In this document: positions 17,548 through 52,060 of the stretch, one piece after another
Numbering within the stretch: position 1 is the stretch's first letter
How the letters are laid out: each line of letters starts with the position of its first letter
Virus record (IMG/VR): IMGVR_UViG_3300037245_003639
From: a virus
Reading direction: 5' to 3' (one strand)
Length of the DNA: 64,000 bases
Program-made: the position numbers and the translations under genes
The notes under the pieces: model-generated
Told to the model about the DNA's origin: nothing
The model's database searches: none
What the model saw: only the letters and a program-made list of their open reading frames with translations

Positions 17548-19524
17548 TTGTTATGCATGGATATATTCATGAACGACCTTCTCAAAAGAATTGCAGAAAC
17601 CAAAGAAACTCTCAGCAGAGTCGGCACGAATCTCAAGAAACGTTTTGTCGGTATCGACGAAATGATAGATTCCGTGCTGGATAACCTGGAAGTTTGGCAC
17701 GCAATGCCCGAATTGATAGGTCGGCCTGTGATCATCAATTTATGGGGCATGACAGGTGTTGGTAAAACAGATTTAGTTCGACAATTGGCCAAAGAACTTT
17801 CTATGGTGGACCGGTTTGTCGAGGTCCAGATGGCCAACAAATCTGACAGTTCGTCTACTTCAATTCGGTCGATTCTGGCCCACTCATCTATCGAGCCTGA
17901 TGCCAAAGGCATTCTGTTGCTCGATGAGATCCAGCGTTATCGTACTGTGGATCAAAACGGCGTTGAAATTCATGATCACGACTTCCAAGATGTATGGATG
18001 CTACTCAGTGATGGATGTTTTGCTGGTGATAGTTCCGCCAAATCTGAGATTGTTGACCTGTTGTTCGGAGACCTATACTGGCAACAATACGAAAACCGAC
18101 CAGAGCCAACTACTGCCAAGGCCAAAAAGAAAAAAAAGGAAGAAGCAGCAAAAGCAAAACGCATCAAATACAAGCAATCCATCTGGGCTGCTCGTCATCT
18201 CAAACGAACGCTACGTTTAACTCAAAGCGTCGAAGAGATTATGATGTGGGACGAGGAACAGAAATACCATATGCTCACTGATGCTTTGAACAATCAGGAC
18301 ACATTCGAGGGTGACTCCTATCAACAATTGCTCATCTTCATCTCAGGCAACATTGATGAAGCTTATAGCATGGCGTCCAATACCGATGATGCGGATATGG
18401 ATGCTGATATCTTCTATGAATTCTCCAAGAGAATCAACTTCGTCTCCATTAAACGAGCCCTGTGTCGGCGATTCAAACCCGAACAAATAGCTCGTCTCGG
18501 CAATACCCATGTTATCTATCCGTCGCTGTCCAAAGCATCCTACCAGGAAATCGTCAATCGTAAAGTTGATGAAATCACACAGAAGATGCAAGAACATGGG
18601 ATGAGAATTACAGTGGATCAGTCTGTCAAAGACTGCATCTACCGCAACGGTGTTTTCCCGGCTCAGGGCGTCCGACCAGTGCTCTCCACGGTCAATGCTA
18701 TGCTTGGAAACGCTGTGCCTGGATTCTTCATGAAAGCCGTAGAACATGGAGTAAGTGAATTCCTTATTACCTGTGATGATGAATCTCAGGAACTTGTTGT
18801 CGCTATTGGTGAGCACGAATTTCGCCGGACAATAGAAGGCGGTATCGACAAAATCAAGAAAGAGCACGATATTCAACAAGTCCAACTTACGGCAGTCCAT
18901 GAAGCCGGGCATGCCGTGGTCTATGCCGTTCTTACTAATTTGACCCCGCTGCAAATCATTGCAAATACCTCAATGGAGAACAAAGAAGGATGGGTAGGTA
19001 TACATCATTCATCATTCTCCAAGGACAGTATCCTGCAACGTGTTTGCACCAACTTGGCAGGCATGGTCGCAGAGGATTGGGTATTTGGAGACCCAGATCG
19101 AACAGCCGGATGTTCTGGTGACGTTTATTACGCAACCAACTTGATTGGGTCGCTCATTCGTCAGTGGGCTATGAATGGCAGAGTTAGCTATAGCTCCAAT
19201 AGACATCAGGACTGCAACCCGGTCAACTTCGATATAGAAAGCACAAACGCAGAAATAGAACGGATAATGTCTGAGCAAAAAGAGCGAGCGAAAGATTTGC
19301 TCGAACGTCATCGCCCATTATTCGAAGCGACAGTTGTGGCACTCAATGATGGAACACAAGGCAAGCTCGTGGGAGTTATTTCGTCTGTGGAATTCCAAGC
19401 AATAGCAGCACGGTTTGGCACGGAATTGGAAATCCAGAGTGCCAAGGAAACCCCCTATGCCGACTATATGGGAATGTTCAAACAGTTTACTAAAAGCGTT
19501 GCCGCCGAGGAAGTCGCAACATGA
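17548..19524 (+). CDS. FtsH-like ATP-dependent metalloprotease: divergent P-loop ATPase domain plus peptidase M41 domain, no TM anchor
   Basis: Walker A GMTGVGKT, Walker B ILLLDEIQ; C-terminal HEAGHAVV ... GMVAEDWVFG ... YYATNLIGSLIRQWAMNG matches the FtsH M41 zinc site and C-terminal helix by eye. Confidence 0.7.
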   Translation: MLCMDIFMNDLLKRIAETKETLSRVGTNLKKRFVGIDEMIDSVLDNLEVWHAMPELIGRPVIINLWGMTGVGKTDLVRQLAKELSMVDRFVEVQMANKSDSSSTSIRSILAHSSIEPDAKGILLLDEIQRYRTVDQNGVEIHDHDFQDVWMLLSDGCFAGDSSAKSEIVDLLFGDLYWQQYENRPEPTTAKAKKKKKEEAAKAKRIKYKQSIWAARHLKRTLRLTQSVEEIMMWDEEQKYHMLTDALNNQDTFEGDSYQQLLIFISGNIDEAYSMASNTDDADMDADIFYEFSKRINFVSIKRALCRRFKPEQIARLGNTHVIYPSLSKASYQEIVNRKVDEITQKMQEHGMRITVDQSVKDCIYRNGVFPAQGVRPVLSTVNAMLGNAVPGFFMKAVEHGVSEFLITCDDESQELVVAIGEHEFRRTIEGGIDKIKKEHDIQQVQLTAVHEAGHAVVYAVLTNLTPLQIIANTSMENKEGWVGIHHSSFSKDSILQRVCTNLAGMVAEDWVFGDPDRTAGCSGDVYYATNLIGSLIRQWAMNGRVSYSSNRHQDCNPVNFDIESTNAEIERIMSEQKERAKDLLERHRPLFEATVVALNDGTQGKLVGVISSVEFQAIAARFGTELEIQSAKETPYADYMGMFKQFTKSVAAEEVAT

Positions 19525-24608: not shown

Positions 24609-25541
24609 ATGATAACTCGAAGAGAATTCCTTAAAACGTCCTCCACCGCCTTAGCGGCTCTCTCCCTGCCTTCTGTGGCGCTTGCCACCCAAACGCTCAG
24701 AAAACCCAATACAGGGCTTCTACGGCCCCCTGAGCAGCCTCTGAACATGGAGACCCTGGAAGACTGGCTCAACCAACTATCCATCTCACGTAAGGTACTG
24801 CTTTGCGACGATATCTCCAAAGTCGGTTGTATCCCCAGATATGAATTAGACATGCCAGTCCGCCGCAACCTTCGTAGAAACGCTCGTATCCTGGCTTGTT
24901 CCATAGATGGAGAGCAATTGCTGTGTCATCACGCACCACCGTACATGCGAGTACCCATCAATTTTCTATCTATTCCCGCGAAAATTGACCACAAGCCTCC
25001 AGACCAATGCAGCGAGTTCTATTTAGCATCATTGCTGGCTGATGAAGAAAACAAACGTCTTGTTTGGATGTGCAAACACGGAGCCAAACGAGAACGTATC
25101 AGATGCCCACTCAGCCCCGCTGTCCTCAATACCACCTTTAAAATGATCGAACAATATGATTGCATAGTCGAACACGTTGTCATCTCACCCACTGCTATTG
25201 AAACCCTCAGAGATTTTGGCGATGACTTCTTCGGTGAACCTCGTCAAGAGCAGCTCAAATACGGCACTCCCGCCTCGATGCAGGCGGTGCAGAAGAGGTA
25301 CGTGCTCCCAGATTGGCATCTCACCAAAGGCCATATATGGTGCGCTGATGTCATGCAAACTGCTTGGCTCAAACCAAACCAATTCATGGTCTTTGCTCGG
25401 CGTGATACCGTAGGACCACTCGTGCAAGAAAAAGCCCCTTACATCTACAGCGGTTTCGACCCAAAAGGAAACATCTGTGTCCATGTCGGGCATGCGCTAA
25501 TCAACCCACATCTGTGCATCTTTGCAGAGATAATGCTGTGA
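24609..25541 (+). CDS. exported protein with Tat signal peptide
   Basis: MITRREFLKTSSTALAALSLPSVALA. Confidence 0.55.
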   Translation: MITRREFLKTSSTALAALSLPSVALATQTLRKPNTGLLRPPEQPLNMETLEDWLNQLSISRKVLLCDDISKVGCIPRYELDMPVRRNLRRNARILACSIDGEQLLCHHAPPYMRVPINFLSIPAKIDHKPPDQCSEFYLASLLADEENKRLVWMCKHGAKRERIRCPLSPAVLNTTFKMIEQYDCIVEHVVISPTAIETLRDFGDDFFGEPRQEQLKYGTPASMQAVQKRYVLPDWHLTKGHIWCADVMQTAWLKPNQFMVFARRDTVGPLVQEKAPYIYSGFDPKGNICVHVGHALINPHLCIFAEIML

Positions 25542-25867
25542 TGACTCTACTAACCGCTCTTATCATTCAAAACCGCGAAATTCGCTGCGAAGCAGGTGGC
25601 CCCTGTACCCAAGGTGAACCCCACGAAATCGGCAAATGGGTCGGTTGGATCATGATCGATGAAGAGCGCTGGTCTCCGTTGCTCAATACCCCGCCCATCT
25701 ATGACTCAGAACAACAGGCCACACAAGAAATGGAAGCACTCGTTGCCAAGATTCGAGAAACAGACTTTGGTGACGATGTAGAACGATTACGTAACATCAT
25801 TGGGGAAGCGGCCCCGATAATCAACAAAATCATCCAAGGTGCAAACACATCAGGAGCGTCATCATGA
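25541..25867 (+). CDS. hypothetical protein, 108 aa
   Basis: TGATG overlap with the upstream stop; ATGA overlap with the ACP gene. Confidence 0.4.
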   Translation: MTLLTALIIQNREIRCEAGGPCTQGEPHEIGKWVGWIMIDEERWSPLLNTPPIYDSEQQATQEMEALVAKIRETDFGDDVERLRNIIGEAAPIINKIIQGANTSGASS

Positions 25868-26103
25868 CCATTGAAGAAATAGAAGAAAAAGTAATCCAAA
25901 TCGTTAGTGATATTGTAGGAGTTCCTCCTGACTCTCTCAACCGAGAAACATCGTTCAACGATTTGAATGCTGATTCGTTGGACACTGTGGAAGTTGTTAT
26001 GGAGTTTGAAGAAATCTTTATGATAGAAATCACTGACGATGATGCTGACAAACTCCTCACCCTCGGGCAATGTATCGACCATATCAAAGAATTGGTGAAA
26101 TAA
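25864..26103 (+). CDS. acpP: acyl carrier protein
   Basis: 79 aa; DLNADSLDTVEVVMEFEEIF, the canonical DSL phosphopantetheine site and helix II. Confidence 0.8.
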   Translation: MTIEEIEEKVIQIVSDIVGVPPDSLNRETSFNDLNADSLDTVEVVMEFEEIFMIEITDDDADKLLTLGQCIDHIKELVK

Positions 26104-26645
26104 TGACTGATTTTCACATGTTTTGGGGTGGCCCTTTTTCTCAATGGTATCCTTCAACATTTGAAGTAGAGGGAGTCAAATACAACTGCACAGAACAGTA
26201 CATGATGGCCAAAAAAGCACAACTCTTTGGAGATGAAGAAGCCATATCAAGAATCATGGCATCAAATAACCCCAAAGAACAAAAGCGTATCGGACGAACT
26301 GTAAAAGATTTTGTGGCAGAACGCTGGAATGCCATTTCCCGAGATGTGGTCTTCAGAGGCAATATGGCGAAATTCACTCAAGACCCAGCCCTTCAGAGAT
26401 TCATATTGGCGACTGGTGACCAGGAAATCGTTGAAGCCAGTCCCGAGGATACCATCTGGGGAATCGGTCTAGCTGCTGAAGACCCTCTGGCTCAGGATAG
26501 GGCCACATGGAAAGGTACTAACTGGCTTGGTGAAGTTATAATGAGCGTCAGGAGCACAATACGCTCTTTCCCAGAGCCGGAACCCGAGTGTCAGGTGGAA
26601 TTGATCAAACCAGTGGCTGAACGTGAAGTCGTACTGGACCCATGA
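26103..26645 (+). CDS. NADAR / YbiA-like (DUF1768) N-glycosidase-family protein
   Basis: TAATG overlap with acpP; motifs FSQWYPSTF, YMMAKKAQLFGD, AKFTQDPALQRFILATGDQEIVEASPEDTIWGIG parallel E. coli YbiA blocks. Confidence 0.7.
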   Translation: MTDFHMFWGGPFSQWYPSTFEVEGVKYNCTEQYMMAKKAQLFGDEEAISRIMASNNPKEQKRIGRTVKDFVAERWNAISRDVVFRGNMAKFTQDPALQRFILATGDQEIVEASPEDTIWGIGLAAEDPLAQDRATWKGTNWLGEVIMSVRSTIRSFPEPEPECQVELIKPVAEREVVLDP

Positions 26646-26672
26646 TTAAATCTTTTCCCGCGAATTTTTACC

Positions 26673-26701
26673 TTGACATACACCCTTACATGGGGTATAG
26701 T
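26673..26701 (+). promoter_or_regulatory. sigma70-type promoter TTGACA-N17-TATAGT with a TTTTCCCGCGAATTTTT box just upstream; no convincing ORF before the hairpin at 26808-26836
   Basis: Read directly. Confidence 0.4.
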
Positions 26702-26878
26702 GACTCTTGGTCATGAGTGACTTGGGGCCTAATCAACTCCAAACCGCGTGACACGCTTGCTAGTCACTTATGAACCTGGTGGATGCGGGTCATACCGCCC
26801 CTTGGTTCTGGCATTTCAAGCCAGGGCCATTTTTTTATGTCAGTTTGAGGCAATTGTCCAAGTTTCTTGGAAAATGCC

Positions 26879-26906
26879 TTGACAATAGCCAGGATTCCTG
26901 TATACT
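26879..26906 (+). promoter_or_regulatory. sigma70-type promoter TTGACA-N16-TATACT with the conserved leader TATACTCTCCTTAGACAAGGAG
   Basis: Same -10/leader cassette as the minus-strand early promoters. Confidence 0.5.
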
Positions 26907-26928
26907 CTCCTTAGACAAGGAGCGTAAA

Positions 26929-27261
26929 ATGCGAAGCGAAACCGACCGAATCTGTGCTGCAATCTTGGCTTACCCGCCTTTAGTAGCGGGTCATCCGGTC
27001 TCGAATAAGGCCCTTTCTGACCACGCTCAGGCCCATAGAAGTAACATGTATTGGGCTCTCACCCGAATGGTGAAACGAGGCACGTTGGAGAAACCCAGTC
27101 GAGGTACTTACAAACTCGTAAATCCCTCCCAAAGGTTGGCCGAGATTGCTGCTCAATGCAGCAAACAGCTTGCAGAACGTCAAATTACTGTAACTGTGAA
27201 CGGCCTGCGAGTAATGGGGACCGTAGATGACATCCGAGAACTCTTAATACAGGGAGCATAA
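26929..27261 (+). CDS. hypothetical protein, possibly a winged-helix regulator
   Basis: 110 aa; start after the cassette SD. Confidence 0.4.
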   Translation: MRSETDRICAAILAYPPLVAGHPVSNKALSDHAQAHRSNMYWALTRMVKRGTLEKPSRGTYKLVNPSQRLAEIAAQCSKQLAERQITVTVNGLRVMGTVDDIRELLIQGA

Positions 27262-27264
27262 CTT

Positions 27265-27603
27265 ATGCCAGCCCAATCAGCCAAACAGACATGGACCAAA
27301 GGGGAATGGAACAAACTACAGAAACGCAAGATCTCAGAAGCCGAATACTTTGGCTCTGTCGGAGACGTGAATATCGCTGACGCTGCCAGCACTATCACGA
27401 TCAACTGCCAATCACTCGATGCCGTCCAACAACTGGCCGACGCTGCTAATGCAGCCCTAGCACACTGGAAACGAGCAAAACATCAGAACCTTAAGTCCAA
27501 AACCGTCCGCAGCGCCCTACTACCCATTGATATGGTCAAATTCACGTACCACAAAGCAACTAACAAGATGACTTGCTTGGGATTCAAACGAAACTCTAAA
27601 TAA
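27265..27603 (+). CDS. hypothetical protein, 112 aa
   Basis: SD GGGAGC. Confidence 0.45.
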   Translation: MPAQSAKQTWTKGEWNKLQKRKISEAEYFGSVGDVNIADAASTITINCQSLDAVQQLADAANAALAHWKRAKHQNLKSKTVRSALLPIDMVKFTYHKATNKMTCLGFKRNSK

Positions 27604-27853
27604 CCCAACGGGACTCCCAAGGGAACCCCCCACACAGCAAAGTCACCGGTCTTTTTTAAATGGATGGCTTCATCTGGTGGGCGAAAAGAGTTCATAAAAT
27701 ACATACGCGCAAGCTTAACTAGTCATGGATGGCCTCCGCCGAGACAATATCACCGGTCTATTCCCGGGAAGGGGGGTAGTTGCTATGTCATATGGCTTAA
27801 AAGCATGCTTTGCACTGATCTCAAGTGGCCTGTGTGCCCGATCCCCTGCTGAT

Positions 27854-27930
27854 CTATTTAGTTAAGGATGTGGTAGGTCAGAGTTATTTAGTTAAGGCGA
27901 GGATATGGTAGGTCTATTTAGTTAAACAGC
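27854..27930. repeat. three direct repeats of about 30 bp (TATTTAGTTAAGG...TGGTAGGTC) at the convergent strand-switch point
   Basis: Units start at 27855, 27885 and 27915; followed by the GC hairpin gcgggccgcagcccgc at 27932-27947. Confidence 0.6.
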
Positions 27931-27986
27931 AAGCGGGCCGCAGCCCGCAGTAGGCCACGACCCGCTCTAGGTAATGGTGAGTCAGG

Positions 27987-28235
27987 TCAGGTCAACCAAA
28001 GGAAAAGCAAGGCCATGATGTAGGCCACGACGCGCAAGGTGCCCATGCGTCGAAATTGTCGGTCGGCGTCGTCGCACCTTACATCCGAGTGGTCGCTCGA
28101 CAGGATGTAGACACCCTTCCGCTCCGCTCGCCCGCTCATCCACATGCAGACGCAGCCAGTGAGAATCGGAATCAAACAGACGACCCACATGGGAATCGTC
28201 ATGCTTGCGGCTGGGACGCTCAAAGTAATTGGCAT
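27987..28235 (-). CDS. small membrane protein, 83 aa
   Basis: Start after cassette promoter 28268-28296; the N-terminal TM region resembles that of gene 50241-50891. Confidence 0.45.
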   Translation of the reverse strand: MPITLSVPAASMTIPMWVVCLIPILTGCVCMWMSGRAERKGVYILSSDHSDVRCDDADRQFRRMGTLRVVAYIMALLFLWLT

Positions 28236-28267
28236 CATTGCTTCTCCTTTAGCTTTGACCTACTTAG

Positions 28268-28296
28268 AGTATACCCTATGTTTCCGCCGCTGTCAA
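28268..28296 (-). promoter_or_regulatory. sigma70-type promoter TTGACA-N17-TATACT with conserved leader
   Basis: Read on the minus strand. Confidence 0.55.
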
Positions 28297-29220
28297 GTTC
28301 TTTTCGGATTTCTCTTCGGGTTTCTCTCTCAGCCCCGCTGTTTCGAGAGTCAATGCTACGGCGTTGCATGTACGATTGAGCAGTTGCATACATGCCTGTA
28401 TCGGCTCGCGGCCCTTGGCCCATGCAGTGATGTATTTGTAAGCCCCGCCTAGGTCAGCGTCACGTTCGTAACCGAGAGCATAGAGCAAAACAGCTCCACC
28501 TAATTCGGCTACGATTTCGCCGTCCGCGTATTCTCTGCTACCCTTGCCCCCTTGTGAATTCATCGCACCTAATCTATCATCGGCAGCATGTACTAATTCG
28601 TGGGCGAATGTCGAGACGTTTTCCACGCCGAGAGCGATAGCGTTTCGGCCACCGCTGTACCACCCTTGGGCGGCACCCGTTTGTCCGCTGTACGCTTGGA
28701 GCGACAGGCCCCACTCTTCGGCCACTTCACGCAGGGGTAGCCCGTCTAGGAATTCTTGGGCTTTGGCGTTGTCGGGCCGTGCCTTTTCCCATAGGTCGGG
28801 TTCGGTTATGTCGGTTTGCTCTAGGCCGAATACGGCCATGCCACGGAAACCGTAGATTATAAATCGGTCTTCGTCTGTACCATCATCGCCTTTGACGCTT
28901 CTCTTTCCCTTACAGGGGGCTAGGATAATGAAGGACTTTTCGCCCTGGCGTACTTGTCGTCCTACTTTTTTCCAGCCCGTCCATTCTGATGGGGGAAGGT
29001 CTACCCATTTCTTGCCGACTTTGTTCTTGGTCCTGCCGTAGGTCATGGCGTCGGACATGCCGCGCAAGGCGACGATCAGTTGATTTGACCAGCTATAGTT
29101 GCTGGCGTTTCGCCCGCCACATTTCAGGAATATGGGAGCGATAGCTTTCGGCAGCGTCCCCGCTTTGAACTGGCCGATGATGATGTCAGCGACGGATTCG
29201 GCTTGACCGTAGAGTTTCAT
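28276..29220 (-). CDS. ardC: ArdC-like antirestriction protein / zincin metallopeptidase (ssDNA-binding N-domain plus HExxH C-domain)
   Basis: About 314 aa; FAHELVHA, then GEIVAELGGAVLLYALG, parallel ArdC HELxH ... EELVAELGAAFL; ATGA overlap with the upstream gene. Confidence 0.7.
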   Translation of the reverse strand: MKLYGQAESVADIIIGQFKAGTLPKAIAPIFLKCGGRNASNYSWSNQLIVALRGMSDAMTYGRTKNKVGKKWVDLPPSEWTGWKKVGRQVRQGEKSFIILAPCKGKRSVKGDDGTDEDRFIIYGFRGMAVFGLEQTDITEPDLWEKARPDNAKAQEFLDGLPLREVAEEWGLSLQAYSGQTGAAQGWYSGGRNAIALGVENVSTFAHELVHAADDRLGAMNSQGGKGSREYADGEIVAELGGAVLLYALGYERDADLGGAYKYITAWAKGREPIQACMQLLNRTCNAVALTLETAGLREKPEEKSEKNLTAAET

Positions 29221-29561
29221 GCCAGAATCTCCACGTCCGCATCGGACAGACCTACACCTACCGACTCGGCCCACTCGGCGGTTGTTTTCGGCCAGTCCGT
29301 TGGCAAGCGATTCGAGTCAGGTACCATCGACGCAAAACGCAGAGGCGTTCGGTGTTGCAGTGGGTGAGCCCACCACTTTATCTCGGAATCGTCGGGCTGG
29401 TTGTCGGCAGGTACTACCAGGATAAGCATACCGGCGGGCAACATGCGGCGTTCGCCGGGATTGCCATGAACTGTCTGCTGGCGAGTCACTCCGATAGTAC
29501 GAATAACGTGGTTTTCGGGGCAGCGTCGGACAATCTTCTCACAGTCGCGACATAGAATCAT
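29217..29561 (-). CDS. hypothetical protein, 114 aa, N-terminal CxxC
   Basis: First gene after promoter 29585-29613; translationally coupled to the ardC-like gene. Confidence 0.45.
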   Translation of the reverse strand: MILCRDCEKIVRRCPENHVIRTIGVTRQQTVHGNPGERRMLPAGMLILVVPADNQPDDSEIKWWAHPLQHRTPLRFASMVPDSNRLPTDWPKTTAEWAESVGVGLSDADVEILA

Positions 29562-29584: not shown

Positions 29585-29613
29585 AGTATACATCAAGTTT
29601 CGGGGTTTGTCAA
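29585..29613 (-). promoter_or_regulatory. sigma70-type promoter TTGACA-N17-TATACT (perfect -35)
   Basis: Minus strand reads CCCTTGACAAACCCCGAAACTTGATGTATACT. Confidence 0.6.
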
Positions 29614-29678: not shown

Positions 29679-29733
29679 CACTTGAGATCAGTGTGTTCTA
29701 ATTTCCTTGCGAAAATTACACTGATCTCAAGTG
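29679..29733. repeat. inverted pair of the 15-bp element (F 29679-29693, R 29719-29733) around a 25-bp spacer holding a TTCCTTGCGAAAA half-box
   Basis: Perfect 15-bp inverted repeat read directly. Confidence 0.8.
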
Positions 29734-29830
29734 GGAGCTGCGGTTGAGCTGGTGGAGCGGACTCACTCGTGGCATAAAAAAAGGGCCAGCCTTTCGGCTG
29801 ACCCTACCCTTGATGCGAAACTACGCCAGT

Positions 29831-30144: not shown

Positions 30145-30290
30145 GTTCCAGTTGAGGGGTCTGTTGTTCATCCACTTGAGATCAGTGTGCTCGGGTGAAC
30201 GGAAAAAAGGCCAGCCTGACGGCTGACCCGCGCTGGGGGTTGGGATTTCGGGCCGTTCGTCTCACGGGTCCACGGCCTCGGGTTGCCCCG

Positions 30291-31129: not shown

Positions 31130-31209
31130 TGGAGCCAGTAGGACTCGAACCTACAATCACCTGTATCTCGCGAGAAATACAGACGGCTTCCCAATTTGCC
31201 TATGGCCCC
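31130..31209 (-). tRNA. tRNA-like gene (80 nt) with canonical acceptor, D and T arms but a non-canonical, extended anticodon region
   Basis: 5' GGGGCCA pairs with 3' TGGCTCC (one G-U); D-loop AATTGGGAA; T-arm GTAGG-TTCGAGT-CCTAC; the central 22 nt are CTGTATT-TCTCGCGA-GATACAG (7-bp stem, 8-nt loop); no CCA encoded; own promoter at about 31270-31300. Confidence 0.45.
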
Positions 31210-33288: not shown

Positions 33289-33639
33289 CTACCTTTCGTC
33301 GGGAAACATCAGAGTGATGCCACCGCTTCCGTTGGCCCCAATCCATACGTCTTTGCCCGTGACGTTTCCTCCGAGGCCTTCCGTCCACAGATGATCAGCG
33401 GGGTTGCCCTTTACAATCAGCAGAGCGTCCTGGATGAGTGGGATGGCTCGCTGTTCGAACGTCCTGTCGTCCTGGACGGCTTCGATGGCTTCGTGGACTC
33501 TGACGGTCAAGAAGACTCGGACTCCAAACTTGGCTGGAAATGGCTCACCAATCATGCCGTCTTCGAGCGCGTCGTCGTCGGTATAGACGCTGATAGGGTC
33601 GCCAAACATCTCGGTCATCGGGTCTTTTGCTTTGCTCAT
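33289..33639 (-). CDS. hypothetical protein, 116 aa; leaderless (ATG 6 nt after the -10 TACTAT)
   Basis: Promoter 33646-33674 (TTGACA-N17-TACTAT). Confidence 0.45.
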   Translation of the reverse strand: MSKAKDPMTEMFGDPISVYTDDDALEDGMIGEPFPAKFGVRVFLTVRVHEAIEAVQDDRTFEQRAIPLIQDALLIVKGNPADHLWTEGLGGNVTGKDVWIGANGSGGITLMFPDER

Positions 33640-33689
33640 GTATGAATAGTAACCCATGTTTGCCACTTTGTCAAGCGAAAAATTGGTTC

Positions 33690-33703
33690 TTTTCCGCGGA
33701 AAA
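33690..33703. promoter_or_regulatory. perfect 14-bp palindrome TTTTCCGCGGAAAA about 16 bp upstream of the -35 (centre near -62)
   Basis: Read directly. Confidence 0.5.
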
Positions 33704-33900
33704 TTGAAGAGTTTGCGAATTTTGTAATTTTGTAACTTTGTAACTGTTTCGCAATTTCGCAATTTTGCAACTTTGTAACTGTTGCAACTTTGCAAGTATT
33801 TGCAACTTTGCAACTTTGCAACTTTGCAACTTTGCAACTTTGCAACTTTGCAACTTTGCAACTTTGCAACTTTGCAACTTTGTATTTGCAACTTTGCGAA
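33700..33900. repeat. microsatellite: 8-bp unit TTGCAACT (about 13 pure copies at 33796-33896, degenerate copies upstream)
   Basis: Read directly; the ORF-track products with KVAKLQSCK repeats are artefacts of it. Confidence 0.85.
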
Positions 33901-43678: not shown

Positions 43679-45172
43679 CTAGTTCTCGGTATCCTCCAGA
43701 CCCGACGAAATAGCGTCCGCATCGGCTTCCACTTCGGCATCAGCGTCGGAAGTATCCTCCGCCGTATCCGTCAGGTCCGCAGCGGGAGCGTCCTCGACAA
43801 CGGGAGCGTCCGCAACAGGCAGGGTCTCGACAACGGGCTCGGGCTCGGTCTCGACCCTCTTAGTCGGCTGACGCTTCGGACGCTTCGCCTTGGGCTTGGG
43901 CTTGGGCTTCGCCTTGGGCTTCGCCTTGGGCTTCGCCTTGGGCTTCGCCTTGGGCTCGGGAGCCTCTTCCGTCTCTTCCACTTCGGCCCGCAACGCTTGA
44001 CGGGACTCGTGGGTAAGGGCGTCACCGCAGCGGAGACCGATGATGCAGGTAATCCGCTTGTCGCCACGGTCATCCCCGAAGGTCATCGCCATCGGCTGGT
44101 CGATAACCGCATTACGGAGACCAAAGCAGGCCAGGACGGTCGGGTTGTTGCGGGTCTGGACGCCCATATTGTAGAAAATGGCATCCTCAGCCGCTTCCTC
44201 ATCATCCCACGACTCCAGGAAGTAATCCCACGCCGACTTGCCGTCCTCATCGTGGGTTGCCTTGGCGTTCATGAGCTTCTTGACCGCCGCAACCAACGCA
44301 GCCTTGCTGACGCTGTTACCGACGATGGGTTCGGCCAGGGCCTTGAAAGTGATACCCTTCGTATTCTCACTCTCAACCGCCTTGGCGATTTGAGCGTAGG
44401 TCATTGCCTTGCCGCTACGCATGAGACGGCCAGCGGTCGCCAACTGGTTCGGCAGCATGACCACAGGCGTACCCTGGGTACGGTCGCCTGTCCACGGGAC
44501 GGTCGTAACGCTGTTGTTGACCTGAAAGACGATGTTGCGGATTTCGTCCTCACGGCCACGAAACGCCAGACGTTTCGCGCAGATCACGTTGGCGCCGTAG
44601 GTATTGCTACCCGTGGAACCGTGAAAAACGTCGATAGCGTGACTTTTGTCGTCGCCAATGACGTACTCGGATTTGCCCACTATCACGAGATGGCCTTCAC
44701 CCGTGACATTGCGACGAACATCCTTGAGAGCCTGCGCCCGTCCGAAAGTAATGCTGATGCCGTAGCCCGGTTTCCACGCCGGGAGATGGGAAGACCAGTT
44801 TTCGGGCTGTTCCTGATTGCGGCTGGCCTGTCCATTGCCAGCAAAAGTCATTCCCAGACTCTTGGCCGCAGCCAGCAAAACGGGCTGATGGACCGCCGGG
44901 ACAGCCGGGACGTGCTTCGCATCGCGACCCGCATACAGGGCCTTGTTCATGCTGTCGTCGCTGTAGGTCTCGGTTGTCTCATCCCACTCGCCCCACTTCG
45001 CCTCAATCTCCGCCACCGTGAACCGACCACCATTGACCTCAGCCACGGTCAACTTCTCGCCAGCGACCAGCTTGTGGGCCAGGGTTACGAGATGATCAGG
45101 CTTCACAGGCAGGAGGAGATTGCAGACAGGCGGGGCCGTCTTCGGTTTGCTCTTACTCTTGGCCATTTGCAA
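43679..45172 (-). CDS. hypothetical protein, 497 aa, with a C-terminal lysine-rich tandem repeat (PKAK)n, histone H1-like tail
   Basis: 12-bp DNA repeat gccttgggcttc at 43905-43950; promoter 45242-45270 (TTGACA-N17-TAAACT). Confidence 0.5.
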   Translation of the reverse strand: MQMAKSKSKPKTAPPVCNLLLPVKPDHLVTLAHKLVAGEKLTVAEVNGGRFTVAEIEAKWGEWDETTETYSDDSMNKALYAGRDAKHVPAVPAVHQPVLLAAAKSLGMTFAGNGQASRNQEQPENWSSHLPAWKPGYGISITFGRAQALKDVRRNVTGEGHLVIVGKSEYVIGDDKSHAIDVFHGSTGSNTYGANVICAKRLAFRGREDEIRNIVFQVNNSVTTVPWTGDRTQGTPVVMLPNQLATAGRLMRSGKAMTYAQIAKAVESENTKGITFKALAEPIVGNSVSKAALVAAVKKLMNAKATHDEDGKSAWDYFLESWDDEEAAEDAIFYNMGVQTRNNPTVLACFGLRNAVIDQPMAMTFGDDRGDKRITCIIGLRCGDALTHESRQALRAEVEETEEAPEPKAKPKAKPKAKPKAKPKPKPKAKRPKRQPTKRVETEPEPVVETLPVADAPVVEDAPAADLTDTAEDTSDADAEVEADADAISSGLEDTEN

Positions 45173-49737: not shown

Positions 49738-50244
49738 TTAACCTTGCGAAACAGATTGCCGTATCAACTGGTACATATGAACCTTCATGTCCGCCACAGA
49801 CATAAATTCTGTGACAGGTTCGTTCCCCTCTCCAGAATCTAATTGAAGTTGCCAACGCTCAGGACCATTTTGGACCAACGAGTACCGTTGGTTAGTTTGA
49901 GCCGTCAACCGGCCAAGCAAATCAAAAGGATGTTCGTGAGACAACATTCCATTCACGGCCAGCCAGTCAAACAACTCCCCTTCACTCGTGATGAAGTCCC
50001 CGCCGGGGTGATTGGTCTCTCTGCTGTCATGGCAGAGCGTGAATCCACAGCCCTTGCAACGAAACGAATAAATCCCGTCACAGTCGTCCGTCGAATGGTC
50101 CGTCTCACCATAGTTACAGGCAAACGCATCTCCACCCTGAGATTCGAGCGATTCAACCACCGTGGACTGTACCACGTCAGTTAAGACTTCCTCAAGAACC
50201 GTCTCCCCGCATTGCGGGCATTTGAAGTTGAGATCGACTCTCAT
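49738..50244 (-). CDS. hypothetical Cys-rich protein, 168 aa
   Basis: ORF. Confidence 0.45.
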   Translation of the reverse strand: MRVDLNFKCPQCGETVLEEVLTDVVQSTVVESLESQGGDAFACNYGETDHSTDDCDGIYSFRCKGCGFTLCHDSRETNHPGGDFITSEGELFDWLAVNGMLSHEHPFDLLGRLTAQTNQRYSLVQNGPERWQLQLDSGEGNEPVTEFMSVADMKVHMYQLIRQSVSQG

Positions 50245-50891
50245 CCGTTATCCCCAATGAAATTGGACGTAATCGCATTCGCCGTATCATCAGGATAAAA
50301 GTGCATCTGAGCCAACGAAACCTCACCCGGTAATTCATGCCGCAAATGAGCCCACAGCTTCCTACTCAATGACATACGCCGCCCTTCGCTGTTGTCAAAG
50401 ATTGTATAGTAGTCAGATGCAGGAGCGACCGACGCTGCCAATTCCTCATCACAACGCTCATGCGCCCAGTAAACAAACTCCACTTTGCCCCCTGGGAGGT
50501 CATACTCCGTCGTGAACTCATGCTTCATCTCGAAAAACGGCTTCCCCTGTGAGACAGCAGCGGGCTTCGAGACCGCCACCTGGATAGCCATCCACAGGAA
50601 CAACATCATAGCCACATACGCCATAACCCGCCAAAAACCCATGCGACAGAAGTTGATGTTCGGATGGTCCTGAGTATTGAAGTCACCACTCGATACCTTC
50701 GCAATACCCACGGCCTCATTCACCCCAGACCGCCACATGGCAAAGATACCCGCAAGCATTGGAAGGATGACAAATACCCACGTAGGAATCACGATGCTGA
50801 ATGACGGAAAACTCAAAATCAAAGCGTTCATTTCGGCTCCTCTTGCCAGTAGACAATCCAGTTTGACGCCCCTAGTTGAGAACAGGGGCAA
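50241..50891 (-). CDS. membrane protein, 216 aa
   Basis: ORF; N-terminal TM region resembles gene 27987-28235. Confidence 0.45.
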   Translation of the reverse strand: MPLFSTRGVKLDCLLARGAEMNALILSFPSFSIVIPTWVFVILPMLAGIFAMWRSGVNEAVGIAKVSSGDFNTQDHPNINFCRMGFWRVMAYVAMMLFLWMAIQVAVSKPAAVSQGKPFFEMKHEFTTEYDLPGGKVEFVYWAHERCDEELAASVAPASDYYTIFDNSEGRRMSLSRKLWAHLRHELPGEVSLAQMHFYPDDTANAITSNFIGDNG

Positions 50892-51480: not shown

Positions 51481-51536
51481 CACTTGAGATCAGTGTCCTG
51501 TTTATCAGACCTTGAAACTTACACTGATCTCAAGTG
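51481..51536. repeat. inverted pair of the 15-bp element with a 26-bp spacer (F 51481-51495, R 51522-51536)
   Basis: Read directly. Confidence 0.8.
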
Positions 51537-51860
51537 AGCGTGTGCCAGGGTATTTCATACCGCATATTATCTCAATCGGAATGGGGGGAACAAAAAGTGG
51601 AAACAAAGCGCGGACCCAGGACATCCCCCAATGTCCCGAGTCTCTTCTTTCCCCAGGAGAACACCTGAGCCTACACAGCTTTCAATTCTATGGGCCAAAA
51701 TGCAAGTCAATTTTCATCCACTTTCTCCTATTATACAAGGAATGTGTGTCCAATTATCAGAAGATTATATATGCACACTACTTCATATCCCAGTTCATTT
51801 CAATAAGAACTATTTTAAGAAGTTCAATTAGGACAATAGAAAAGTTGCGAGCCGCATCGA

Positions 51861-52060
51861 TGGAATCTTTGTTCTTTGGGGTTTGATTGTTGTGTTCTAA
51901 TGGAATCTTTGTTCTTTGGGGTTTGATTGTTGTGTTCTAATAGAATCTTTTTATTGATGGTAGAATCTTTGTTTTTTGGGGTTTGATTGTTGTGTTCTAA
52001 TAGAATCTTTTTATTGATGTTTATTGATGGTAGAATCTTTCTGTTGATATTGTGTTCTAG
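51861..52060. repeat. 40-bp tandem repeat T(G/A)GAATCTTTGTTYTTTGGGGTTTGATTGTTGTGTTCTAA (3 full units plus a degenerate one) interleaved with AT-rich 20-mers
   Basis: Units at 51861, 51901, 51961 and about 52031. Confidence 0.85.

Follow-up and report, generated by a model that had tools for sequence, protein, structure and literature searches.

The stretch of DNA analysed here, a window of 64,000 nucleotides from the IMG/VR virus record IMGVR_UViG_3300037245_003639, encoded three proteins of interest close to the point where its plus- and minus-strand gene blocks converge: an ArdC-like metallopeptidase (28276-29220, minus strand), a stand-alone NADAR protein (26103-26645, plus strand) and an acyl carrier protein (ACP; 25864-26103, plus strand). 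Two of the genes at this junction are probably accessory genes independent of each other, and the ACP gene is unrelated to them. The ArdC-like protein, made early, would bind exposed phage single-stranded DNA (ssDNA) and block or degrade host nucleases, and the NADAR protein would reverse the ADP-ribosylation of nucleic acids by host toxins; this combined reading was given an even chance of being right. The domain identities, the active-site conservation, the promoters and the gene order were read directly from the window and its relatives, and the pairing of NADAR with ACP was not conserved elsewhere. That the genome is a phage's is inferred from the gene style, the PHROG matches, the presence of an identical ArdC-like protein on a 403-kb contig and the synteny with relatives rich in ORFans.

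A distant ArdC-like protein at the end of the minus-strand block

The 314-aa product of 28276-29220 (minus strand) combined an N-terminal ArdcN/Rad4-BHD2-like ssDNA-binding domain with a C-terminal gluzincin metallopeptidase domain, as recognized by Pfam, PHROG, phmmer and Foldseek. It carried an HELVH motif at residues 207-211, matched PF18818 above the cutoff (29.2 bits against 27.5) and matched PHROG 7245, annotated as an anti-restriction protein, over residues 81-269 (E = 5e-17), while a weak match to Rad4 BHD_2 agreed with the published fold similarity. Among the aligned family members, all 20 of 20 matched the ArdcN profile PF08401 (best E = 3.3e-9) and six matched PF18818. When all PDB sequences were searched with phmmer, ArdC of plasmid R388 (6SNA, 6I89) was recovered with an E-value of 2e-4 over residues 83-271, and the alignment kept both the HExxH motif and the ligand of the glutamate helix (E229) in register.

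A database search returned 817 homologues of the protein, so that the clade has more than 800 metagenomic members. When 20 homologues were aligned, H207, E208, H211, E235 and Y263 were invariant and matched H201, E202, H205, E229 and Y255 of R388 ArdC, residues that supply that enzyme with its metal ligands, catalytic base and substrate-stabilizing tyrosine (PMC7213743). An AlphaFold model built on the same 20-homologue alignment (predicted local distance difference test score, pLDDT, 75.8) was compared with the PDB using Foldseek and gave 6I89 (E = 3.2e-7) and 6SNA (E = 3.7e-6) with a probability of 1.00, the next match having an E-value of 0.23; the alignment to 6I89 spanned the full length. 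In this predicted structure both domains match those of R388 ArdC, with a different relative orientation of the two. The product is a distant, ArdC-like member. Other zincin families (SprT, ImmA/IrrE M78) were considered and dropped, as neither Pfam nor Foldseek gave a match to them, the 20 homologues included. The original prediction of an ArdC-like protein with an HExxH motif and an ssDNA-binding N-domain, made from the sequence alone, was borne out by the agreement of PF18818, the family-wide PF08401 matches, PHROG 7245 and the two ArdC structures, and the SprT or ImmA assignment that it had named as its refutation left no signal beside the ArdC families.

In the direction of transcription, a hairpin and T-run terminator (29782-29805, minus strand) ended the upstream unit, and the ArdC-like unit, lying beyond this terminator (29805-29782), is therefore transcriptionally separate. 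It began with a near-consensus sigma-70-type promoter, TTGACA-N17-TATACT (29585-29613, minus strand), followed by an open reading frame (ORF) of 114 aa (29217-29561, minus strand) that overlapped the ArdC-like gene at an ATGA stop/start. Within the 3' end of the ArdC-like gene, a perfect TTGACA-N17-TATACT promoter (28268-28296, minus strand) drives the next and final gene of the minus block, which encodes an 83-aa hydrophobic membrane protein (27987-28238, minus strand), and a GC-rich hairpin (27933-27948, minus strand) then marks the junction at which the minus and plus blocks converge. The block is transcribed from 51 kb to 28 kb, so that the ArdC-like gene is its penultimate gene, at the convergent junction and not at the head of the block, where it had originally been placed. 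The likening of its position to a plasmid leading region was lost as well, the gene sitting at the 3' end of the block. It had also been called the second gene of the first operon; it is indeed second in a two-gene unit, and that unit is first by coordinate only. A host-type, near-consensus promoter of its own supports early expression of the ArdC-like gene, as far as promoter sequence can predict it. The 114-aa ORF had no homologue in loci L032-L055, and the 114-aa upstream and 83-aa downstream genes were rejected as conserved ArdC partners, neither being found beside ArdC-like genes elsewhere.

Relatives of the ArdC-like protein occurred in two kinds of genomic context. Those with 54-76% identity were found in ORFan-dense, phage-like loci (L033, L034 and L038), and a similar locus (L039) encoded a relative with 46% identity. 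Among them, L033 was syntenic with the window, sharing DUF3307, several ORFans, the ACP gene and the ArdC-like gene (76% identity). In the chromosomes of bacteria, relatives with 44-48% identity (L032, L036/37, L040) had a small ORF and an integrase or resolvase as neighbours. A 210-aa AAA/DNA_pol3_delta2 protein adjoined the ArdC-like gene in L032 and L036/37 as well as in three IMG/VR contigs, with 41-71% identity across L032, L036/37, L047/48 and L052. The resulting module of ArdC-like and AAA genes occupied positions 8001-10448 in L032, 844-2959 in L036, 758-2873 in L037, 4178-5828 in L047/L048 and 4023-5861 in L052. A tyrosine or serine recombinase lay near the pair in L032, L036/37 and probably L052, and L040 had an integrase and no AAA gene. 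The passages on ArdC that were consulted, including those from the preprint on huge-phage ArdC proteins (bioRxiv 10.1101/2025.02.27.640493), made no mention of an AAA/recombinase module beside ArdC. The clade had no tblastn match in 50,697 GenBank phage records, and the plasmids of PLSDB gave only weak matches (34 plasmids, 26-32% identity). From these contexts, beside integrases and resolvases and in phage-like loci, it follows that the family travels with mobile elements, a distribution compatible with a role in establishment or DNA protection.

A Glu-type NADAR protein and its acyl carrier protein neighbour

The 180-aa product of 26103-26645 (plus strand) matched the NADAR profile PF08719 with 180.1 bits (cutoff 35.1; E = 5e-53) over profile positions 11-163 of 163. 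Residues E31, K38, R65, W75, E111, D116 and W119 aligned with E43, K50, R79, W89, E125, D130 and W133 of 8BAU, and the ADP-ribose-binding and catalytic set E43-W133 has been published for the P. nicotianae NADAR (PMC11543638). The active site is predicted from this alignment to be intact, and the NADAR assignment of the original prediction stood on both the Pfam match and the complete active site. Across nine phage NADAR proteins W75, E111 and D116 were invariant, while E31 and K38 were kept in most. At the position equivalent to E125, YbiA-type proteins have Glu, DarT1-linked antitoxins Asp and T4-type phage NADAR proteins His (PMC11543638); the window protein (residue 111) and eight related phage NADAR proteins had Glu. 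The best solved structure was 8BAU (E = 3e-16), and E. coli YbiA (2B3W) matched with an E-value of 7e-9. The Pfam domain began at residue 10 of 180, with no N-terminal extension before it.

NADAR homologues were present in 749 of the 50,697 GenBank phage records, and 28 viral loci from IMG/VR encoded relatives with 27-61% identity that shared no other window gene. The closest phage homologues belonged to siphoviruses of Pseudomonas, Xanthomonas and Stenotrophomonas and to jumbo phages, not to T4-like phages; identity to a NADAR protein of the Vequintavirinae (Cronobacter phage CR3) was 34%.

The 79-aa protein encoded directly upstream (25864-26103, plus strand) was identified as an ACP by PF00550 (44.7 bits, cutoff 20.8; E = 1.7e-11), TIGR00517 (72.7 bits, cutoff 70.45) and NF002148 (75 bits, cutoff 71), and possessed an ADSLDTVE motif with the phosphopantetheine serine of DSLD, in agreement with the original prediction of an ACP at this position. 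Its stop codon TAA overlapped the NADAR start codon ATG by 1 nt (TAATG), within a run of four overlapping genes (24609-26645). Such stop/start overlaps were the norm across the window genome. When the window ACP and E. coli ACP were used as phmmer queries, none of the 28 viral loci had an ACP within 4 kb of NADAR (0/28), and L033 kept an ACP with an intact DSLD (41% identity) and the ArdC-like gene (76%) without the NADAR gene, the Tat-signal protein gene or the winged-helix gene described below. Pfam scans, which covered about 107 window ORFs, detected no phosphopantetheinyl transferase, ketosynthase, acyltransferase or ligase, and tblastn with the window ACP gave no match in GenBank phages.

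A conserved ACP-NADAR module was rejected on the 0/28 count and on L033, which has the ACP without NADAR, and NADAR is therefore best regarded as an accessory gene dropped beside a lineage-conserved ACP, at a variable spot near the junction. The coupling of the two genes put forward in the original prediction is real as a 1-nt overlap and does not extend to a functional unit. A functional pair in which NADAR takes as its substrate a modified ACP or a ribosylated intermediate bound to ACP would draw on that overlap and on the shared run of genes; given the absence of the pairing in the viral loci, the ACP without NADAR in L033, the lack of partner enzymes in the window and the commonness of such overlaps, it was judged very improbable.

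The ACP-NADAR unit ended at a sigma-70-type promoter directly after NADAR (26673-26701, plus strand), and a second promoter (26879-26906, plus strand) lay ahead of a gene for a 110-aa winged-helix protein (26929-27261, plus strand). This protein, with a promoter of its own, gave weak matches to AbiEi-antitoxin and Mrr_N-like profiles; its gene was missing from L033, and the protein is possibly a further accessory regulator. In the packed run that includes the ACP gene, the second gene upstream of it (24609-25541, plus strand) encoded a 310-aa ORFan protein with a twin-arginine (Tat) signal. It had only two database homologues, both of which keep the Tat signal peptide, and is apparently exported; it is not functionally linked to ACP or NADAR. 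The possibility that NADAR is the antitoxin of an adjacent ADP-ribosyltransferase (ART; YarT/YbiA-like or DarT-like) was discarded, since the upstream neighbour is Tat-exported and none of the scanned window ORFs had a Pfam match to DarT or any other ART.

The small-gene block and other features of the window

Searches with PHROGs and Pfam found no phage hallmark genes among the large window ORFs, which matched only an SNF2 helicase, an FtsH-like protease, a RuvB-like ATPase, ClpS and DUF3307, and a further 77 window ORFs gave Pfam matches only to RuvB-like, ClpS and zinc-ribbon families. The window probably belongs to a very large phage-like genome composed mostly of ORFans. When 6 kb of the window was compared with GenBank phages using blastn, two short matches in NADAR and nothing else were obtained, and an exact 44-mer of the window had no match in IMG/VR.

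Between 28 and 51 kb, the minus strand carried about 50 ORFs with a length of 40 aa or more, most of them shorter than 170 aa, including about 20 with an isoelectric point below 5.3 and several rich in Cys. The promoter consensus TTGACA-N17-TATAMT, with at most one mismatch, occurred at 24 sites against 0.44 expected, and further sites had a 16-nt spacer. This small-gene layout is typical of regions that host RNA polymerase transcribes early. The original prediction had seen here an arsenal against host defence: the small acidic or Cys-rich ORFs and the strong promoters are there, and the word arsenal describes them without being evidence for their function. The 83-aa protein at the end of the block (27987-28238, minus strand) shared 40% identity with a segment of the 216-aa protein encoded at 50241-50891 (minus strand), so that a paralogous pair stands at opposite ends of the block.

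A motif of 14-15 nt, CACTTGAGATCAGT(G), was restricted to this small-gene block and bracketed it, with 27 copies between 27814 and 51536 against 0.06 expected, including those at 29679-29692, 29720-29733, 30173-30186 and 51481-51536. On the transcribed strand it read mostly CACTGATCTCAAGTG and was intergenic: copies followed terminators, preceded -35 boxes by about 35 nt or directly adjoined Shine-Dalgarno sequences. Inverted pairs of CACTTGAGATCAGT were present at six loci, forming potential hairpins with stems of 15-18 bp, and the relative L033 carried two copies. The motif may serve as the operator of a regulator that acts across the block, or as a site of RNA processing.

Also inside the block, a tRNA-like gene (31130-31209, minus strand) matched Rfam RF00005 with 50 bits; ARAGORN gave it no anticodon, and 12 nt separate the 5-bp halves of its anticodon stem, against seven in a normal loop. 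On the plus strand, 17548-19524 encoded a 658-aa AAA+ protein with Peptidase_M41 (FtsH-like) and ClpB D2-small domains, and a separate ORF resembled the ClpS adaptor; the element seems to carry proteolysis or proteostasis components of its own. Repeats comprised a short tandem array in which the 8-nt unit TTTGCAAC recurs about 20 times (33705-33900), in or near the ORF at 33289-33891, a 12-nt tandem array (43870-43977) within a 497-aa ORF, a 40-nt unit present three times at the block's far end (51860-51999), and TTAACTAAATA, likewise present three times, at the convergent junction (27850-27930), near which the metagenomic contig L001 ends.

Proposed functions and comparison with known systems

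As proposed here, host RNA polymerase would transcribe the ArdC-like gene early, starting from the near-consensus sigma-70 promoter of its unit, and the protein would shield incoming or replicating phage DNA from host nucleases, for example those of type I restriction-modification, by coating exposed ssDNA as R388 ArdC does and possibly by DNA-tethered proteolysis of a host protein. The NADAR protein, which belongs to the Glu-type, stand-alone class common in large phages, would be active as an ADP-ribosyl N-glycohydrolase and would free guanine in phage DNA from the ADP-ribose that DarT1-like toxins or other defence toxins with ADP-ribosyltransferase activity attach. The ACP would be a conserved gene of the phage lineage with a separate acyl-carrier role, beside which NADAR was presumably inserted. 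The biochemical activities and anti-defence roles of the ArdC-like and NADAR proteins are plausible on this analysis, and for an anti-DarT role of NADAR, likewise plausible, there is direct experimental precedent in phages (PMC11257639).

Several results weigh against this proposal. On the ArdC side, PF08401 matched the window protein below its cutoff (18.3 bits, E = 0.0027; cutoff 22.6), identity to R388 ArdC was only about 20%, and the global template modelling (TM) score to it reached only 0.34-0.41; moreover, R388 ArdC works on conjugatively transferred ssDNA, with its protease dispensable there, whereas phage DNA is injected as double-stranded DNA (dsDNA). On the NADAR side, the protein scored 168 bits (cutoff 73.7) with TIGR02464, the NCBIfam model for the riboflavin biosynthesis intermediates N-glycosidase, the PADLOC model for DarG gave no match, and the gene sits in a long plus-strand operon, outside the block of individually promoted small genes. 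E. coli YbiA, a Glu-type protein by the classification of de Souza and Aravind, also failed to rescue cells from DarT1 in vivo when no phage was present, as did T4 gp30.3 (PMC11125620).

The ArdC-like protein may instead be a DNA-tethered protease or an ssDNA-binding establishment or replication factor of mobile elements, without an anti-restriction role. As a protease, it would work in the manner of Spartan or IrrE, the closest structures to the ArdC protease domain (PMC7213743), cleaving a repressor bound to DNA, a crosslinked protein or a host protein that binds DNA, and might act with the clamp-loader-like AAA+ ATPase. This Spartan/IrrE-like reading stays alive because the protease site is invariant, though R388 anti-restriction needs no protease (PMC7213743), and because an AAA/DNA_pol3_delta2 neighbour recurs in the bacterial and smaller viral loci, in some of them with a recombinase near. 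That neighbour is absent beside the gene in the window, L033, L034, L038 and L039, no target protein is known, and the sole experimentally characterized member of the family has an anti-restriction phenotype; both the broader alternative and its protease version were considered possible though unlikely. Less probable again, and quite doubtful, is a narrower version in which the clade would form a distinct family of DNA-tethered proteases of huge phages and small integrative elements, destroying a DNA-bound host defence or repressor protein, and in which the small integrative elements often pair it with the clamp-loader-like AAA+ ATPase and some with a recombinase. For the NADAR protein, the competing view is that of a small-molecule enzyme and not a DNA de-ADP-ribosylase, either a YbiA-type N-glycosidase acting on reactive riboflavin intermediates or a hydrolase of ADP-ribose-derived immune signals or RNA-repair by-products. 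The TIGR02464 score, the Glu at the E125-equivalent position, a signature of the YbiA family (PMC11543638), the lack of the N-terminal DNA-groove extension of DarT1-linked NADAR proteins and the failure of YbiA to rescue from DarT1 all speak for it. The TIGR02464 model is nevertheless non-discriminating: NADAR proteins of Vequintavirinae and Stephanstirmvirinae phages pass it with 110-115 bits, for which reason the NCBIfam name was dropped as a functional verdict, and the Bas60 NADAR of the Vequintavirinae neutralized DarT1 (PMC11257639). Furthermore, every NADAR protein tested, YbiA included, hydrolyses guanine ADP-ribose in vitro (PMC11125620), and scans of the 64-kb window found no riboflavin or NAD-salvage genes. 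A small-molecule role was accordingly held to be a serious possibility, with the odds somewhat against it.

If the preferred explanation, of DNA shielding by the ArdC-like protein and removal of ADP-ribose by NADAR, is true, this phage would combine two enzymatic protections of its DNA, through ArdC-like shielding or proteolysis and through NADAR de-ADP-ribosylation. Both concepts are already published, for huge phages (ArdC) and for T4-, T5- and rV5-like phages (NADAR), and the window adds an example, not a concept. The divergent and populous ArdC-like clade, with its invariant protease site and recurrent AAA+/recombinase partner, could help to clarify the purpose of the ArdC protease, and if the distinct-family version is true it would represent a proteolytic mechanism of counter-defence or establishment not yet demonstrated for any ArdC. 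The adjacency of ACP and NADAR provides a clean negative, as it marks no module.

The best characterized relative of the ArdC-like protein is ArdC of the IncW plasmid R388 (6I89, 6SNA; Gonzalez-Montes et al. 2020, PMC7213743), the only significant PDB match both by sequence and by fold. Both proteins possess an ArdcN ssDNA-binding domain with a Rad4-BHD2-like beta-hairpin and a gluzincin metallopeptidase domain. They differ at ArdC E228, which is Gly in the window protein, and by a 19-aa insertion in the N-domain of the window protein that is common only to its closest relative; R388 ArdC is moreover encoded in a plasmid leading region and meets conjugative ssDNA, whereas the window protein belongs to a huge-phage-like genome delivered as dsDNA. 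ArdC homologues have been reported from 101 huge phages and read as anti-defence proteins (bioRxiv 10.1101/2025.02.27.640493). The window protein resembles them in keeping the key residues and in its genome of more than 200 kb (the 403-kb contig), and a second structural cluster described there superposes poorly on R388 ArdC, as does the window model.

For NADAR, the nearest functional precedents are AdfN (T4 gp30.3), NADAR-Bas32 and NADAR-Bas60, which counter DarTG1 during infection; the phage NADAR proteins tested remove guanine ADP-ribose, and those of Bas32 and Bas60 neutralize DarT1 (Johannesman et al. 2024, PMC11257639). Like these, the window NADAR is a stand-alone phage protein without the N-terminal extension of DarG1 and with the catalytic Glu and Lys kept. 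Bas60 belongs to the same subfamily (Vequintavirinae) as the CR3 phage whose NADAR is 34% identical to that of the window, a comparison that holds at the subfamily level, while the AdfN clade differs in having His at the E125-equivalent position, where the window NADAR has Glu. With YbiA/COG3236 (TIGR02464) and 8BAU it shares the Glu-type active site; unlike YbiA/COG3236, it is viral, stands alone without riboflavin-pathway context and has phage proteins as its nearest relatives (up to 61% identity). With DarG1 it shares the NADAR fold, the Glu/Lys pair and the predicted hydrolysis of guanine ADP-ribose (Schuller et al. 2023, PMC11543638), and it differs from DarG1 in having no adjacent DarT, no basic N-terminal extension and no PADLOC DarG match, and in carrying Glu in place of the catalytic Asp (D171 of the E. 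coli C7 NADAR).

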